From Acidobacteriota bacterium (GTDB taxonomy: Bacteria > Acidobacteriota > UBA4820 > DSQY01), in assembly GCA_049968315.1 (NCBI GenBank), contig JBMFRA010000008.1:662-64661 (forward strand): a stretch of DNA of 64,000 bases, read 5' to 3'. Numbering within the stretch: the first letter of the stretch is position 1; each line of letters opens with the position of its first letter. Shown here piece by piece: positions 7,860 to 32,469 of the stretch. The notes below the pieces were generated by a model. That model was not told the DNA's origin. It worked only from the letters and a program-made list of their open reading frames with translations, and searched no databases. Position numbers and translations under genes: made by a program.

Positions 7860-9502
7860 GGGGCTCCCTCCACCACCGAAACCTCCACCGCCGTTCCGAA
7901 GGTCCGCCGGAAGAGGTCGGCCTTTCGCTTCATGGACCAGCCCTCCAGCAGGAGGTCGCCCTCCCCCTCTACCGCCAGGCGAACGTGCCCTTCCTGGAAG
8001 GAGACCTCCACCCGGTGGACCCGCTGGCGGTGCTCCCGGTCCAGGGCGTCGGCCAGCCGAAGGAGGGAAGCGAGGACCCGCACGGTGCGCCTCTCCCGGC
8101 GGTCCAGGAGGGCGAAGGACTCGTGCTGGGGTTTGGGGGGACTCCTCCGGTGGTACCGTGCCACGTTGGCCACCAGGAGGGTCTCCCGGGGCGAGAAACC
8201 GGCCAGCTCGCTGTTGGCGATGAGGTAGAGGCTGTGCTTGTGGTGCCGGTTGTAGCTCACGAAGGTGCCCACGTCGTGGAGAAGGGCCGCCGCCTGCAGG
8301 ACGGCCCGTTCCGGCGGCCCGAGCCGGTGGAGCTCCTTCGTCTGGTCGAAGAGGGAGAGGGCCAGGCGGGAGACGTGGCGGCCGTGGCTCTCGTCGAAGC
8401 CGTACTTCCGCCCCACGGGAAGGGCCGCCGCCTCCACCTCGGCCTCGCTCCGGCCCCCCCCGTCTCCTCCCCCCCAGGCTTCGGCCAGTTCCAGGACCAC
8501 CCCCTCCCGCAGGCCCACGAAGGGGACCCTTATCTCCCGGGCCCCCGCCAGGCGGGCCAGGCGAAGGTACACCAGCGCCGCGGGAAGGATGACGTCCGCC
8601 CGGTCCTCGCGGATGCCCAGGGTCTCGATCCGCTCCCGGTAACCCAGGGCCGCCAGCCGGCCCGTCAGGCGCTCCAGGACGCCGACCCCCAGCCTCGCCA
8701 CACCGCCCTTCTCCCGTGGGCAGAGGGCCAGGGCGGCCAGGGCTTCGGCGTTCCCCCCGGTGGCGATGCAGCCGAGGTTCATTCCCGAGAGGTCCCGGTG
8801 GAGGCGGAGGGTCCCCACGTACTCCGACAGGAGGCGCGGCAGGCGCCCGGCGTCGTCGGCGGCGGCGGCCAGCTCCTCCAGGAGGCGGACGGCCCCCATG
8901 GTATGTGACTCGCTCCAGAGGATCCCCGCCCGGTCGGCGAGGGCCACCTCCACGCTCCCCCCCCCCACGTCCACCAAGAGCCACCGCCGGGTTCCCAGGT
9001 CCATCCGGTGCTTCACCGCCCGGTAGACCAACCGTGCCTCCTCCGATCCGCCGATGGGTTCCAGCCGGATGCCGGCGCGCTCCCGGACCTCGGCGAGGAA
9101 GGCCTCCCCGTTCCGGCTTTCCCGCACCGCACTGGTGGCCACGGCGCGGTAGCGGGCGATGCCCAGGTCCTCCATCCGGCGCCGGTACTCCGAGAGGACC
9201 GCCACCGCCCTGGCGGCGGCCTGGCCATCGAGCTCCCCCCGGACGAAGACCCCGTGCCCCAGCCTCACGGGGCTTCGGCCCGCCTCCAGGACGTCGCAGG
9301 TGCCGCCGGAGAGGAAGCGGGCGGCGAGGAACCGGATGGCGTTGGATCCCACGTCCAGGGCGGCGCACCGAAACTCTCCACCCCCCAAGCCCCCCGCCGG
9401 GGGTGCCTCCGCCGGGATTTTTCCGCCGCTGGCTTTCCGAAGCCTGGCCGCCAAGGATGCCTCCCCCGCCCTTCTGCCCGATCTTCGTTTCTTTTTCAAC
9501 AT
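7856..9502 (-). CDS. ppx: Exopolyphosphatase / guanosine pentaphosphate phosphohydrolase (Ppx/GppA N-terminal domain + HD domain)
   Basis: FRCAALDVGSNAIRF and LLVDVGGGSVEV (ASKHA-fold Ppx/GppA motifs). The C-terminal part has LLHDVG ... HHKHS (HD domain). The start chosen is MLKKKRR at 9502; an upstream in-frame Met at about 9577 is an alternative. Confidence 0.85.
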   Translation of the reverse strand: MLKKKRRSGRRAGEASLAARLRKASGGKIPAEAPPAGGLGGGEFRCAALDVGSNAIRFLAARFLSGGTCDVLEAGRSPVRLGHGVFVRGELDGQAAARAVAVLSEYRRRMEDLGIARYRAVATSAVRESRNGEAFLAEVRERAGIRLEPIGGSEEARLVYRAVKHRMDLGTRRWLLVDVGGGSVEVALADRAGILWSESHTMGAVRLLEELAAAADDAGRLPRLLSEYVGTLRLHRDLSGMNLGCIATGGNAEALAALALCPREKGGVARLGVGVLERLTGRLAALGYRERIETLGIREDRADVILPAALVYLRLARLAGAREIRVPFVGLREGVVLELAEAWGGGDGGGRSEAEVEAAALPVGRKYGFDESHGRHVSRLALSLFDQTKELHRLGPPERAVLQAAALLHDVGTFVSYNRHHKHSLYLIANSELAGFSPRETLLVANVARYHRRSPPKPQHESFALLDRRERRTVRVLASLLRLADALDREHRQRVHRVEVSFQEGHVRLAVEGEGDLLLEGWSMKRKADLFRRTFGTAVEVSVVEGAP

Positions 9503-9598
9503 AGCGGTTTTTCTCTTCCGAAGCAATCGGGGCTCCCCTTTCCACCCCTTTCCTTTCCCGGCGATCGGGCGCATACTGAACCGGATGTGAAGGAAGGG

Positions 9599-9632
9599 AT
9601 ATCCACAACCTGTGGAAATAACTGTGAATAAA
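9599..9632. promoter_or_regulatory. Three DnaA boxes immediately upstream of dnaA start (ATATCCACA; TGTGGAAAT = ATTTCCACA rc; TGTGAATAA = TTATTCACA rc)
   Basis: Direct match to the TTATCCACA consensus with 1 to 2 mismatches each, at 9599-9607, 9611-9619 and 9624-9632. The last box ends 2 nt before the dnaA ATG. Confidence 0.7.
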
Positions 9633-9634
9633 CC

Positions 9635-10975
9635 ATGAGCCACCGCCTGTGGGCCCAGATCCTGGAAAAGGTGAAATCGAGGGTACCGGAGAGCACCTAC
9701 GCCTCCTGGTTCAAGCCTCTCAAGCTCCTTCGTGTGGAGGAGTCCCAGGTGGTTCTCCTGACCCCCAACCCCCTCTTCCGGGAGTGGCTCGAGAGCCACT
9801 ACCGGGGGGTTTTGGAGGAGGCCGCCGCCGACGCCGGCCACCCTGGGCTGGCCATCTCCTTCGAGGACGGCCCCGGGGAGGAACTGGTCCTCCAGCCGGA
9901 GCCCGCCCCCAAGGCCTCCTCCCGGAAGGAGAAGGCCCCTCCCGCCTCCTCCCCTTCCGATCCCCTCTTCAACCCCCAGTACCGCTTCGACACCTTCGTG
10001 GTGGGCCCCTCCAACCGCTTCGCCTTCGCGGCCTGCCTGGCCGTGGCCCAGAATCCCTCCCGCTCCTACAATCCTCTCTACATTTACGGCGGCGTCGGTC
10101 TCGGAAAGACCCACCTCATGCAGTCCATCGGGGCGGAGATCAAGCGGAACAACCCCGATCTGAAGGTCTGCTACCTGTCCACCGAGCGGTTCATGAACGA
10201 GATGATCGCGTCCATCACCCACCGGAAGCAGCACGAGTTCCGGGAGCGCTACCGCCGGGCCGACGTGATCCTCCTCGACGACGTCCAGTTCCTTTCGGGC
10301 AAGGAGGGGACCCAGGAGGAACTCTTCCACACCTTCAACGCCCTCCACGAATCCCAGCGCCAGATCGTCCTCTCCTCTGACTGCCCTCCCCGGGATCTGC
10401 ACAGCATCGAGGAGCGCCTGCGCTCCCGCTTCGAGTGGGGCCTCATCGCCGACATCCAGCCCCCGGAGCTGGAGACCAAGGTGGCCATCCTGTACAAGAA
10501 GGCCGAGGCCTACCGGGTCGCCCTCCCGGAAGAGGTGGCCCTCTTCATCGCCGGGCGCATCAAGAGCAACATCCGGGAGCTGGAGGGTTGCCTCCTCCGG
10601 CTCATCGCCTTCTCCTCCTTCAAGGGCCTTCCCATCACCGTGGACCTGGCACGGGAGACCTTCGAGAGCCTCTTCAAGGAGGACGGCCGGGCCCCCACCA
10701 TCGAGTCCATCCAGCGCCACGTGGCGGCCTACTACAAGATGCGCCTCCAGGACCTCAAGGCCCGTACCAACAAGGCCAGCATCGTGCTGCCGCGCCAGGT
10801 GGCCATGTACCTCTGCAAGGAGCTGACCTCCTGCTCGCTGCCGGAGATCGGCCGGAAGTTCGGGGGCAAGCACCACACCACCGTCCTCCACGCCATCCGG
10901 AAGATCGACGAGCAAGCCAAGAAGGATCCCAACCTTCAACAGGCTATCCACAACCTAGTTCGTTCCATTCGCTGA
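9635..10975 (+). CDS. dnaA: Chromosomal replication initiator protein DnaA
   Basis: Full-length DnaA with AAA+ Walker [11 protein letters not shown], sensor motifs and a C-terminal DNA-binding domain (HTTVLHA). ATG at 9635. Confidence 0.97.
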
Positions 10976-10989
10976 GGAAAGGGACGTTC

Positions 10990-11140
10990 GGTGGAAAAGG
11001 TGCCTTGGAAAAACTGTGGAAAAGCCTGGGGGTGTTTCCAGGGGGGTCTTTTCCTCGCCCTCCACGGAGTTCTCCACAGTACTCCGGCGACCTGCAACTT
11101 CGGCCCGCCGGGACCTCCGGTACTTTTCCACAGATCCACA
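10990..11140. promoter_or_regulatory. DnaA-box cluster in dnaA-dnaN intergenic region (candidate oriC part)
   Basis: Boxes TGTGGAAAA (11016-11024, rc TTTTCCACA), TTCTCCACA (11070-11078), TTTTCCACA (11124-11132) and AGATCCACA (11132-11140), plus weaker GGTGGAAAA (10990-10998). A CTATCCACA also sits at 10944-10952 inside the dnaA 3' end. Confidence 0.6.
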
Positions 11141-11183
11141 GCCCCTACTACGGCTACTGCCTCTATCTAAGGGGAGAGATCCT

Positions 11184-12307
11184 ATGGAGACGAGAATCGA
11201 AGCCCGGAGCCTCCTTTCCGAACTGACGCTGGCCCAGGGGATCGTCGAGTCCAAGGCCACCATTCCCATCCTGGCCAACTTTCTGCTGAGAACCACAGAA
11301 AACGCCTTGGAGATCGCCGCCTCGGACCTGGAGGTGACCCTCCGCTGCCGCTGCCCCGCGGAGATCCTGGAGGAGGGCGGCGTCACCGTTTCGGCGAAGA
11401 AGTTCTCCTCCCTCGTCCGGGCCTTTGCGGGCCTGGAGGGGCGGCTCTCCGTCAAGACGACGGCCCAGGGAAGGCTCTTCCTCCAGCCGGAGGGGGGGCG
11501 CCAGGAGTACCACCTGCAGACCCTTCCGCAAGAAGACTTCCCCACCCTTCTCTCCCCCGACGGGGGCAAGAGCCTGGAGCTCCCCATGGAGGCCCTCAAG
11601 CGGTGCATCTCCGAAGCCCTGGTCTCGGTGGGGGTGGAGGAGAGCCGCTTCTCGGTCCGGGGGGGGCTCCTGCTCCTGGAGAGCGGGCGCCTGGCCCTGG
11701 TTTCCACCGACTCCCACCGCCTGACCTACACCGAGTGGCTGGGCCCCGTGGGGGTGGAGGAGCCCATGCGCCTTCTCGTGCCCCGGAAGACCCTGACGGA
11801 GTTCCTCAAACTGGATGGGGAGGAGAAGGTCCGGGTCTCCTTCCGGGACAGCACCATCTTCCTGGAAACGGGAAACCGCCTTCTCTACAGCCGCCTCATG
11901 GACACCACCTTCCCGGCCTGGGAAAAGGTGATCCCCCAGGGTTCGGACAAGCTGGCGGTGATGAACCGGGCGGAACTCCAGGAGCGCCTGCGGCGGGTTT
12001 CCAACGTGGCGGAGTCCAAGACCCGGGCCGTGATCCTCTCCTTCGACCCGGCGGGGAGCCTCGAGGTCCTGGCGCGGAATGCCGAGACGGGGGACGAGGG
12101 GAGGGAGTACCTCTCCTGCGAGCGGTACGAGGGCGAGGCGGTCCAGCTCCTCTTCAACGCCGACTACATTCTGGACTTCCTGGGGGCCTGCTCCGAGGAG
12201 AAGGTCCGGATGGCCATGAAGGACGGGGAACACCAGGCCCTGCTGCAGCCGGTGCGCCCCGAGGGGGCTCCCCAGCACCAGTACGTCATCATGCCGTTGA
12301 GGTTTGA

Positions 12308-12311
<4 letters not shown>
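11184..12311 (+). CDS. dnaN: DNA polymerase III beta sliding clamp
   Basis: Start METRIEAR at 11184 preceded by AGGGGAGAG; the listed ORF start at 11016 is an upstream extension. Three-domain beta-clamp sequence. Confidence 0.93.
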
Positions 12312-18456: not shown

Positions 18457-18534
<78 letters not shown>

Positions 18535-18593: not shown

Positions 18594-20072
18594 ATGGCTC
18601 CAGGAGTGGAGAGACCCATGGAGCGGTACGATGCGGTGATCGTCGGGGGGGGTGCCGCCGGCCAGGCGGCGGCCCGGGGTCTGGGGCGCCTGGGAGCCCG
18701 GGTCCTCCTCGTGGAGCGGGAGAGCCTGGGGGGGGACTGCATGGCCTGGGGGTGCGTCCCCAGCAAGACCTTCCTCCACCTGGCCCGGCTCCTGGTGGAG
18801 GCGCGGAAGGGCCCCGCCCGGGGGATCGGCCTCGGCGAACCCTCCTTCGATTACGCCGCCGCCCGGCGGTACGTGGCGTCCGTCCAGGCCTCCCTGGGGC
18901 GGCGGGATGTGGAGGAGGGGCTCAAGGGGGCGGGGGTGGAGCTCCACCAGGGGGCCCCCCGCTTCTTGGCCCCCGACCTCCTGGATGTGGGCGGAAAGAC
19001 CGTGAAGGCCCGCCACGTCGTCCTGGCCACCGGTGCCCACGCCGTGCCCCCCCCCATCGAAGGCCTGCCGGAGACCGGGTACCTCGACAGCCGGCGGGCC
19101 CTGGCGCTGGAGTCCCTCCCCCGCTCCCTGGTGATCCTGGGGGGCGGGCCCATCGGCGTGGAGTTCGCCCAGATGTACCGCCGGATGGGGGTAGCGGTGA
19201 CCCTGGTGGAGTCCAACCCCCGGCCCCTCCCCCGGGAGGAGCCGGAGGCCGGGGAGTACCTCCTCAAGGTCCTCCGGGACGAGGGTGTCGGCTTTCTGGG
19301 GGAGCGAAGGGCCGTCCGGGCGGTGAAGACCGCCGCGGGGAAGGGGCTGGTTCTGAGGGACGCCGCCGGGGGCGAAACGGTGGCGGAGGCGGAGGAGATC
19401 CTCATCGCCACGGGGCGTTCCCCCAACGTGGAAGGCCTCGACCTCCAGCGGGCCGGGGTGGCCCACGACCGAACGGGAATCCAGGTGGACCGGACCATGG
19501 GGACCACGGCCCCCGGAGTGTGGGCCGTCGGGGACTGCAACGGCCTGTACCAATTCGCCCACATGGCCGAGCACGAGGCGGGGGTCGCCGTCCGGAACAT
19601 CGTCCGGGGCCGCCTGCCCGCACTGTTTCACGAGCGGATGCACTTCCGGGCCGTGGCCTGGGTGACCTATACCGATCCGGAGGTGGCCCACTGCGGCCTG
19701 ACGGAGGGGGAGGCTCGGGAGCGGGGAATCCCCCACCACGTCCTCACCTACGACTTCGACCACCTGGACCGGGCGGTCATCGAGGACCGCCCCGGCGGCC
19801 TGGCCAAGGTTCTCACGGACCGAAGGGGCCGCCTGCTGGGCGCCCACATGGTGGGGGCCCACGCCGGGGAACTCCTCCAGGAGTTGGTCCTGGGGGTCCG
19901 GCTGGGCCTGAGGGTCGCCGACATCTCCCAGACGGTCCACCCCTACCCGGCTTTCGTCCAGATGGCCCGGCGGGCCGCCAACGTCTACTACGCCAGGACC
20001 CTCTACGAGAACCCCCGGCGCATCGCATTTCTGAAGCGCCTCGCCGGCTTCGAAGGCCGGGGAAAAACCTGA
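18594..20072 (+). CDS. Class I pyridine nucleotide-disulfide oxidoreductase (dihydrolipoamide dehydrogenase / glutathione reductase / MerA-like)
   Basis: FAD motif DAVIVGGGAAG, redox-active disulfide GGDCMAWGCVPSK, an NAD-binding GGGPIGVE and a C-terminal dimerization domain with HPYP. The start could also be the Met at 18618. Confidence 0.85.
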   Translation: MAPGVERPMERYDAVIVGGGAAGQAAARGLGRLGARVLLVERESLGGDCMAWGCVPSKTFLHLARLLVEARKGPARGIGLGEPSFDYAAARRYVASVQASLGRRDVEEGLKGAGVELHQGAPRFLAPDLLDVGGKTVKARHVVLATGAHAVPPPIEGLPETGYLDSRRALALESLPRSLVILGGGPIGVEFAQMYRRMGVAVTLVESNPRPLPREEPEAGEYLLKVLRDEGVGFLGERRAVRAVKTAAGKGLVLRDAAGGETVAEAEEILIATGRSPNVEGLDLQRAGVAHDRTGIQVDRTMGTTAPGVWAVGDCNGLYQFAHMAEHEAGVAVRNIVRGRLPALFHERMHFRAVAWVTYTDPEVAHCGLTEGEARERGIPHHVLTYDFDHLDRAVIEDRPGGLAKVLTDRRGRLLGAHMVGAHAGELLQELVLGVRLGLRVADISQTVHPYPAFVQMARRAANVYYARTLYENPRRIAFLKRLAGFEGRGKT

Positions 20073-20542
20073 AGCAGATTCCGCCGGAGGCGAGATCCGT
20101 TTTGCTTCGCCGGGCCTCCTCCGGTGGACCGTCCTTTCCGCCCCCGCGGTGCGGGGGTGGGGAGAGACGGAAACGGGAACCGGCAGCCGATCTCGAGGGG
20201 GCGCCCCGGAGATCCTCCGCCCAGGGGTCCCCGGGAGATCTCAACCAATAAAACTTGCTTAAAAAAGATAACCGCTTCTGGTTTTTCGTTCCGGATTCTT
20301 TCGCAGAAAAAAGTTTGTTCGACACCCGGAAAATCGGGAAGCGGGCCCCCCTTTGGAGGAGGGGCGGCTCTCCGTTTTCCCCGGCCCCCGGGGGCCGGGC
20401 CCCGGCGTTCCCCCGGCGGGACGGCTCGGGAAAGGGCCTGCCATACCCCCTCCCCATTCGCCTCCGAACCGCCTCTCGGGGCAACTGAAGGTTTGGGCCG
20501 ATTCCCGGGGAGGGGAGCCGCCGGGTTTCGAAGGGGGTGGGG

Positions 20543-20569
20543 AAAAAAAGGAGGGCCTTTCGGCCCTCC
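20543..20569 (-). terminator. Rho-independent terminator downstream of cold-shock gene
   Basis: On the minus strand GGAGGGCC-GAAA-GGCCCTCC is followed by TTTTTTT, 30 nt after the csp stop. Confidence 0.8.
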
Positions 20570-20600
20570 TCGGGGTTGTGTCCGTGCGTAGCGCGGGGCG

Positions 20601-20807
20601 TTACTCGCGGACCACCTTCACCTGGTCCGCCTGGGGACCCTTGTTCCCGTCCTTCACTTCGAAGGTGACGCGGTCGCCCTCCTGGAGCTTCCGGAAGCCG
20701 GTCCCCACGATGGCGCTGTAGTGGACGAAGACGTCCTTTCCCTCGTCCATGGTGATGAATCCGTACCCCTTCTTCTCGTCGAACCACTTCACCGTACCGC
20801 TGGCCAT
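20601..20807 (-). CDS. csp: Cold-shock protein (CspA family, S1-like cold-shock domain)
   Basis: 68 aa with the RNP1/RNP2 motifs ([15 protein letters not shown] ... VFVHYSAI). Confidence 0.95.
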
Positions 20808-32394: not shown

Positions 32395-32469
32395 TGGTGG
32401 GCGGTGGGGGATTCGAACCCGCGCCATCCTGCGTGTAAGGCAGGCGCTCTTCCGCTGAGCTAACCGCCC
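32395..32469 (-). tRNA. tRNA-Val (anticodon TAC)
   Basis: Reverse complement folds as acceptor GGGCGGT/ACCGCCC, D-arm GCTC..GAGC, anticodon stem CCTGC/GCAGG with loop CTTACAC, T-loop TTCGAAT and an encoded CCA. The T-stem has one C-C mismatch. Confidence 0.8.

Follow-up and report, generated by a model that had tools for sequence, protein, structure and literature searches.

In this study, we analysed a 64,000-nt stretch of DNA from an uncultured Acidobacteriota bacterium (GC ~70%; hereafter the window), and we found that the 208-nt spacer between the replication initiator gene dnaA and the beta sliding clamp gene dnaN (positions 10976-11183) is probably the DnaA-dependent unwinding part of the chromosomal origin, that is, a basal unwinding system (BUS) of the Bacillus subtilis incC type. 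We make this assignment because of the layout of the spacer, the polarity of its triplet repeats (DnaA-trios), the 12-nt distance between box and repeats, the clustering of DnaA boxes, the unique phasing of CTA triplets, the conservation footprint, a minimum of duplex stability, the DnaA residues that capture trio bases, and the gene context. The BUS is a known class that has already been catalogued in the same phylum, and the window holds an ordinary example of it with a minor deviation at the third trio. Current understanding of initiation is unchanged by it.

The published search rule for a BUS consists of a DnaA box with up to 2 mismatches, a spacer of 0-16 bp, and at least three consecutive 3'-NAN-5' trios (PMC8287927). 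The trios sit on the strand opposite the 5'-TTATCCACA-3' reading of the box, and among them 3'-GAT-5' is preferred, above all in the position closest to the box. A tandem arrangement with a second, less conserved co-oriented box is seen in 57% of predicted BUS. BUS are predicted in 85% of bacterial origins, and the other 15% are reported without one. The GC spacer between boxes and trios is typically 4-5 bp, and by the top-strand convention the trio is written 5'-CTA-3' (PMC8235120). Because Table S1 of Pelliciari 2021 (PMC8287927) gives the BUS as the complement strand, its entries are read here as the top strand.

The best matches to the DnaA protein of the window (96%, 81%, and 72% identity) are all from uncultured Acidobacteriota, and the nearest named genus is Thermoanaerobaculum (55% DnaA identity). 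The closer relatives were found by protein search and then contig look-ups; scans of genome and metagenome contigs gave mainly Vicinamibacterales, with DnaA identities of 50-55% and differently organised spacers. For conservation, we aligned 14 spacers of the lineage, i.e., that of the window and 13 further distinct ones (DnaA identity 62-96%), and took the majority-base fraction of each region as its conservation value. Boxes were scored against TTATCCACA; the box preferred in the lineage (its consensus) is TTTTCCACA. The features in and beside the spacer are as follows.

10944-10952, plus strand: DnaA box in the 3' end of dnaA, CTATCCACA, 1 mismatch.
10990-10998, minus strand: DnaA box R1, TTTTCCACC, 2 mismatches; conservation 0.86 (14 sequences).
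11004-11012, minus strand: DnaA box R2, TTTTCCAAG, weak, 3 mismatches to TTATCCACA and 2 to TTTTCCACA.
11015-11023, minus strand: DnaA box R3, TTTTCCACA, 1 mismatch, exact lineage consensus; conservation 0.83.
11070-11078, plus strand: DnaA box F1, TTCTCCACA, 1 mismatch; conservation 0.87, invariant columns T96 and T98.
11124-11132, plus strand: DnaA box F2, TTTTCCACA, 1 mismatch to TTATCCACA, exact lineage consensus; conservation 0.83.
11133-11140, plus strand: DnaA box F3, GATCCACA, an 8-mer fused to F2; conservation 0.84, CACA invariant in 14/14.
11141-11144: GC spacer GCCC, 4 bp; conservation 0.79.
11145-11159, minus strand: core DnaA-trio array (trios 1-5), plus CTA CTA CGG CTA CTG, minus 3'-GAT GAT GCC GAT GAC-5'.
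11160-11168, minus strand: distal in-phase triplets CCT CTA TCT (6-8), weak and unconserved (0.47), only the middle one trio-like.
11161-11190: 30-mer with the lowest duplex stability in the spacer, 47% GC; -36.7 kcal/mol (window mean -47.2, standard deviation 2.9).

The right half of the spacer has the parts of a BUS in the expected order. F2 is within the mismatch limit and is followed by a 12-nt spacer to the first trio, F3 is a co-oriented second box, the GC spacer is 4 bp long, the array has the correct polarity with the preferred 3'-GAT-5' nearest the box, and the whole module lies in the origin region adjoining dnaA. F3 can also be read as a 9-mer, AGATCCACA (11132-11140), with 2 mismatches. 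F2 is the predicted anchoring box of the unwinding module, the counterpart of DnaA-box 6 of B. subtilis, and F3 is the putative counterpart of DnaA-box 7 (AATCCACA).

The incC BUS of the B. subtilis oriC reads, on the top strand, TTATCCACA AATCCACA GGCC CTA CTA TTA CTT CTA CTA (PMC8287927), and the module of the window reads TTTTCCACA GATCCACA GCCC CTA CTA CGG CTA CTG; the two have the same 9+8+4 layout, the same polarity, and the same 12-nt spacer, which is found also in the Listeria, S. aureus, and Koribacter entries (PMC8287927, Table S1). Both modules lie in the dnaA-dnaN spacer and have further boxes upstream, some in the opposite orientation, and the capture residues of the two DnaA proteins are identical. 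Unlike the B. subtilis module, that of the window has a central C in trio 3 of the bound strand and about five conserved trios, and it belongs to a genome of 70% GC. It also lacks the AT-rich 27-mer, and the dnaN ribosome-binding site is no more than ~10 nt from the last trio-like triplet. That the layout is kept to the nucleotide between Bacillus and a distant phylum supports the module being ancestral.

In the same phylum, the predicted BUS of Candidatus Koribacter versatilis Ellin345, top strand TTTTCCACT TTTCCGCA AGAC CTA CTG TTA CTA CTG (PMC8287927), shares with the window its position just after dnaA and the box consensus TTTTCCACA, and its trio pattern is that of two relatives of the window (L169 and L166). 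All trios of Koribacter have a central A and are followed by an A/T run, whereas the window has CGG as trio 3 and no A/T run. The BUS of Deinococcus radiodurans, which has been tested in vitro, reads TTTTCCACA GTATCCACA GGCC CTA CTA CTG CTA CTA CTG on the top strand (PMC8287927). It resembles that of the window in its high-GC setting, its first box, and its trio types (GAT and GAC), but its array is uninterrupted, it has an A-rich tail, and its second box is a 9-mer, so that the spacer is 13 nt.

The boxes are concentrated at this locus. Seven boxes with up to 1 mismatch exist in the 64 kb (1.7 expected; 0/100 shuffles reached 7), and 6 of the 7 lie within 9599-11132. Both of the exact TTTTCCACA copies in the window are inside the dnaA-dnaN spacer. 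With up to 2 mismatches allowed, the 208-nt spacer has 5 boxes against ~0.2 expected from the window density of 62 per 64 kb (Poisson P ~2e-6). In total, the spacer holds six boxes conserved in position between 10990 and 11140 (R1-R3 and F1-F3). The weak box R2 aligns with TGTGGAAA-type boxes of the relatives, and its position is conserved; its conservation value, 0.76, was computed on 11003-11011, 1 nt off the box coordinates. Only some members of the lineage have the box at 10944-10952, which overlaps the conserved codons Q-A-I-H-N; putative selection on this box is inseparable from selection on the DnaA protein. Between R3 and F1, we observed a terminator-like hairpin with a T run at 11025-11052 (CCTGGGGGTGTTTCCAGG GGGGTCTTTT). 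Such hairpins are at the chance level in the scan of 9400-11300 (1 against 1.5 expected), and the DNA around this one is poorly conserved.

The whole periodic run, CTA CTA CGG CTA CTG CCT CTA TCT A, occupies 11145-11169 and is far beyond chance. On both strands of the window, only one site has at least 4 CTA among 7 in-phase triplets, and this site is the run at 11145; when the window was simulated 200 times with a first-order Markov model, no such site arose (mean 0.0, maximum 0). Likewise, the trio array is the sole site in the window with at least 5 consecutive C[T/G]N triplets beside a box. A site at 19985 with 3/7 in-phase CTA triplets was discarded as out-of-frame coding sequence.

These results bear out the original prediction, made from the letters of the window, that a second DnaA-box cluster lies between dnaA and dnaN and that trio-like 3'-GAT-5' repeats follow its last tandem boxes: all the boxes that it listed, including the one in the 3' end of dnaA, are present, and R1 (10990-10998) adds to them. 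Its positions for the plus-strand boxes (11070-11078, 11124-11132, and 11132-11140) were right, and the box that it gave as 11016-11024 is at 11015-11023 on the minus strand; similarly, it gave the sequence of the periodic run correctly but 1 nt too far to the right, at 11146-11170.

The conservation of the spacer follows the module. The mean column identity of the alignment is 58%, and 16 spacer columns are invariant: 5 in R1, R3, and F1, 4 in the CACA of F3, and 7 in the array, namely CTA CT in trios 1-2 and CT in trio 4. By region, the majority-base fraction is 0.76-0.87 in the six boxes, 0.94 in trios 1-2, 0.52 in trio 3, which is the background level, and 0.83 in trios 4-5; it is 0.46-0.50 in the two inter-box stretches and 0.47 in trios 6-8. 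Trio 1 is CTA and trio 2 is CT[A/G] in 14/14 sequences, trio 4 is CT[A/T] in 14/14, and trio 5 has a central T in 13/14. On the top strand, the central base of trio 3 is T in 9 of the 14 sequences, C in 2, and G in 3 (CGG in the window and in L161, CGA in L167); the bound strand has 3'-GCC-5' in the window, 3'-GCT-5' in L167, and 3'-NGA-5' in both L171 and L081. Since trios 1-2 and 4-5 are conserved around a variable trio 3, the 3-nt phase is conserved. Alignment across related genomes had been proposed with the original prediction as a check of the periodicity, and trios 1, 2, 4, and 5 proved to be conserved in sequence as well as in phase across the 14 spacers.

The DnaA protein of the window aligns with the B. 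subtilis DnaA chain 8btg_A, from a BUS cryo-electron microscopy entry, at 437 bits. In B. subtilis, N187, I190, I193, R202, and E228 capture or flank the trio bases (PMC10721633). The corresponding residues of the window protein in this alignment, N188, I191, I194, R203, and E229, are 5/5 identical.

Within the spacer, the duplex is least stable on or next to the array. In a nearest-neighbour profile, 11161-11190 has z = 3.6 and is the fourth least stable distinct site in the 64 kb. It covers the Shine-Dalgarno sequence of dnaN, GGGGAGAG (11171-11178), and the ATG (11184). The stability minimum of the spacer, taken over 30-mers, starts between -2 and +29 nt from the trio start in 12 of the 14 sequences, and the distance from trio start to dnaN ATG is 39 nt in the window and 32-39 nt in the 12 sequences with an exactly placed dnaN start. 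Judged from this profile, 11161-11190 would serve as the unwinding element instead of a separate AT-rich block.

Several observations weigh against the assignment of the spacer as the unwinding site. No distinct AT-rich element was found in the spacer, and trio 5 is only 24 nt away from the ATG of dnaN; two other sites of low stability, 9488-9517 and 9610-9639, lie upstream of dnaA. Trios 3, 6, and 8 have no central adenine, so the array is not a clean trio run, and the window does not have at least three consecutive adenine-centred trios (GAT GAT, then GCC). GC skew across the 64-kb window was too noisy to place the origin. Finally, only 64 kb of the genome is visible, and a second or different origin is possible outside it.

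The interruption of the array was compared with the published rule. Our re-implementation of the (NAN)x3 rule, run on 78 spacers and on 9300-11300, gave no match in the dnaA-dnaN spacer of the window; it misses the module because trio 3 is 3'-GCC-5'. At the homologous position, 9 of the 14 lineage sequences have three consecutive adenine-centred trios, and with a central C admitted beside A, the window has five trios in a row. The authors of the search rule anticipated deviant trios without the central adenine (PMC8287927), and the same group later reported that cytosine can replace the central adenine of a trio in vitro and in vivo (PMC10721633). We found no support for a C-centred preference at interrupting triplets among 171 loci (top-strand non-T: 8 G, 10 C, and 17 A), a scan in which the phases are ambiguous in T-rich arrays and the statistical power is little. 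Within the 14-sequence clade, the non-T cases of trio 3 are 3 G versus 2 C. The simpler reading would be that trio position 3 is unconstrained.

It is possible, though we hold this only tentatively, that the lineage has a naturally interrupted DnaA-trio array, in which trio 3 is unconstrained, trios 1-2 and 4-5 keep their sequence and phase, and the DnaA filament bridges or accepts a non-adenine triplet. If so, the C-centred cases would correspond in nature to the A-to-C substitutions that work in B. subtilis, and the (NAN)x3 rule would under-count unwinding modules, especially in GC-rich genomes; some of the 15% of origins without a BUS could be accounted for in this way. The locus fails the published rule through one non-adenine trio alone and is thus a concrete test case for relaxing the rule. 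Literature searches on the DnaA-trio combined with taxon names returned nothing relevant. In two Rokubacteria-labelled genomes (L075 and L079), from a different high-GC phylum, we observed just upstream of dnaN a box, GCCC/GGCC, and CTA CTA CGA CG[A/G] CTA, i.e., two canonical trios, two in-phase CGN triplets, and then trios again, an interruption like that of the window.

On the model of B. subtilis, initiation at this locus might proceed as follows. Domain IV of DnaA would bind the tandem co-oriented boxes F2 and F3 (11124-11140), which are observed and conserved. Beyond the GC spacer, the bound DnaA protomers and others joining them would assemble through their AAA+ domains into a filament on the minus strand, with each protomer covering one triplet, and the filament would capture the 3'-GA-5' dinucleotides of trios 1, 2, 4, and 5, as suggested by the B. 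subtilis cryo-electron microscopy model and the identity of the capture residues. Trio 3 (3'-GCC-5') may be tolerated either because the cytosine amine stands in for the adenine or because the filament bridges the position. Opening would then spread into 11161-11190, with the ribosome-binding site and start codon of dnaN, and the helicase would be loaded there. R1-R3, F1, and possibly the dnaA operator described below may supply or stabilise additional DnaA, a role that distal boxes have been shown to play in B. subtilis. If this is true, the unwinding zone would double as the translation-initiation region of dnaN and would couple origin opening with clamp expression. A compact origin of this kind, which lacks an AT-rich block and whose predicted bubble includes the ribosome-binding site and ATG of dnaN, would be a natural substrate for asking how much instability a BUS needs. 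In the more distant Vicinamibacterales and similar genomes (L005-L068 and L083-L160), the last box, TTTTC[C/A]ACA, is ~75-110 nt upstream of dnaN and is followed by gcac and a run of T-centred triplets containing GTTATAATT or GTATAAT, a consensus-like extended -10; in these genomes, a predicted trio/unwinding zone may double as the dnaN promoter.

The gene context is canonical: dnaA, dnaN, recF, and gyrB follow in this order (NCBIfam), and a divergent Ppx/GppA-family gene (ppx), identified through the Pfam families that its syntenic counterpart has in relatives, lies upstream of dnaA. The two genes that border the spacer are as follows.

9635-10975, plus strand: dnaA, replication initiator gene (TIGR00362, 548 bits, NCBIfam).
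11184-12311, plus strand: dnaN, beta sliding clamp gene (TIGR00663, 228 bits, alignment from residue 3).

The coding strand switches sharply at 9505-9634, in the intergenic region upstream of dnaA. Every open reading frame with coding-type GC at third codon positions to the left of 9.5 kb is on the minus strand, and ~30 consecutive open reading frames to the right of the switch, out to ~45 kb, are on the plus strand. A switch of the coding strand beside dnaA is the pattern expected at a replication origin.

This context bears on the possibility that the boxes of the spacer are transcriptional operators only, through which DnaA would regulate dnaN or the termination or attenuation of dnaA, with the origin elsewhere. 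DnaA boxes often act as operators, and the cluster before dnaA looks like one; the uninformative GC skew and the 64 kb visible would also be compatible with an origin at another place. However, an operator does not need a phased CTA array of the correct polarity at exactly the BUS spacing after tandem boxes, no sigma-70-type promoter was detected in 9400-11300, the coding strand switches beside dnaA, and the homologous spacer of Koribacter is a DoriC-predicted origin with a catalogued BUS. We consider this explanation improbable.

The boxes upstream of dnaA form a second cluster, so that dnaA is flanked by three boxes at 9599-9631 and six at 10990-11140, and both clusters are conserved in relatives.

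9599-9631: upstream three-box cluster, ending 3 nt before the dnaA ATG.
9599-9607, plus strand: upstream box ATATCCACA.
9611-9619, minus strand: upstream box ATTTCCACA.
9623-9631, minus strand: upstream box TTATTCACA.

The forward-reverse-reverse boxes abutting the dnaA ATG are the same in every relative examined, including Thermoanaerobaculum. The three boxes fill the 36 nt before the ATG, and no Shine-Dalgarno sequence was found within 15 nt of it. The first two boxes form an inverted repeat, ATATCCACAaccTGTGGAAAT, which would be a hairpin in the mRNA too; directly before the boxes comes a purine run, GAAGGAAGGG, and a CATACT that resembles a -10 element is ~22 nt further up. This layout of boxes, purine run, and CATACT (9572-9637) is kept down to Thermoanaerobaculum. 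To judge from the sequence, the cluster is probably an autoregulatory operator of dnaA, and possibly, by analogy with B. subtilis or Helicobacter pylori, an auxiliary half of the origin or a distal donor of DnaA. The likeness to the bipartite incA/B plus incC arrangement of Bacillus, which the original prediction had drawn, thus holds for the topology, with clusters on both sides of dnaA, but the upstream part has three boxes, no trios, and the look of an operator.

Could unwinding occur upstream of dnaA instead, at 9488-9517 or 9610-9639, with the spacer as the auxiliary DnaA-binding half of a bipartite origin? In duplex stability, these two sites rank second and third from the bottom among the 30-mers of the window, and the only match of our re-implemented strict rule in 9300-11300 is at 9493-9518 (TTTTCAACA + tagcg + GTT TTT CTC TTC). 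We rejected this candidate as a probable false positive: it is found only in the window and the 96% relative and is absent from all other relatives, and it is within or beside the 5' end of ppx, the start codon of which is uncertain. The conserved upstream boxes have no trio array beside them and occupy the dnaA leader. Moreover, both of the characterised bipartite origins, those of B. subtilis and H. pylori, open on the dnaN side or in the oriC2 half. Upstream unwinding is therefore also unlikely, to about the same degree as the operator explanation.

In H. pylori, the clusters oriC1 and oriC2 likewise lie on both sides of dnaA, and the downstream one has fused boxes (ts1/ts2), a GC spacer, and trios where opening starts (PMC8235120). 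Unlike the window, H. pylori has an AT-rich unwinding element of ~50 nt, and its halves have been experimentally shown to interact, whereas the upstream half in the window is a probable three-box operator. The spacer also resembles the Escherichia coli oriC in having closely spaced, co-oriented box arrays in two opposed orientations (here R1-R3 versus F1-F3). The E. coli origin differs in that it is not beside dnaA, depends on IHF, has AT-rich 13-mers, and has a weak BUS score.

Two further explanations have very little probability. The CTA periodicity could be a functionless product of chance or composition, as its pattern is broken in 3 of 8 triplets and the array does not pass the strict NAN x3 rule, but a site unique in 128 kb of strand sequence, absent from the simulations, and with CTA CT and the CT of trio 4 invariant in 14 diverged sequences while neighbouring DNA is ~50% conserved effectively refutes it, since the relatives are not near-identical at the DNA level. 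The conserved block, which lies 18-39 nt before the dnaN ATG and would be part of any transcript shared by dnaA and dnaN, could be an RNA element in the dnaN leader, such as a translation-controlling structure, but the RNAalifold consensus (12 sequences, 11105-11200) is -0.61 kcal/mol with a positive covariation term, i.e., no conserved structure, and there is no Rfam hit at the block.

The preferred reading of the spacer as a BUS thus places a likely origin-opening site in an uncultured, GC-rich acidobacterial lineage.

Elsewhere in the window, ~530 nt at 20073-20600 are apparently non-coding and contain the 30-mer of lowest duplex stability in the 64 kb (20243-20272, 23% GC); this region gave no Rfam hit and has no DnaA-box cluster. 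It is flanked by a plus-strand gene ending at 20072 and by the 3' end of a minus-strand cold-shock protein gene (20601-20807). Two tRNA genes, at 18457-18531 (plus strand) and 32398-32469 (minus strand), are the sole hits in the window at the Rfam gathering threshold.

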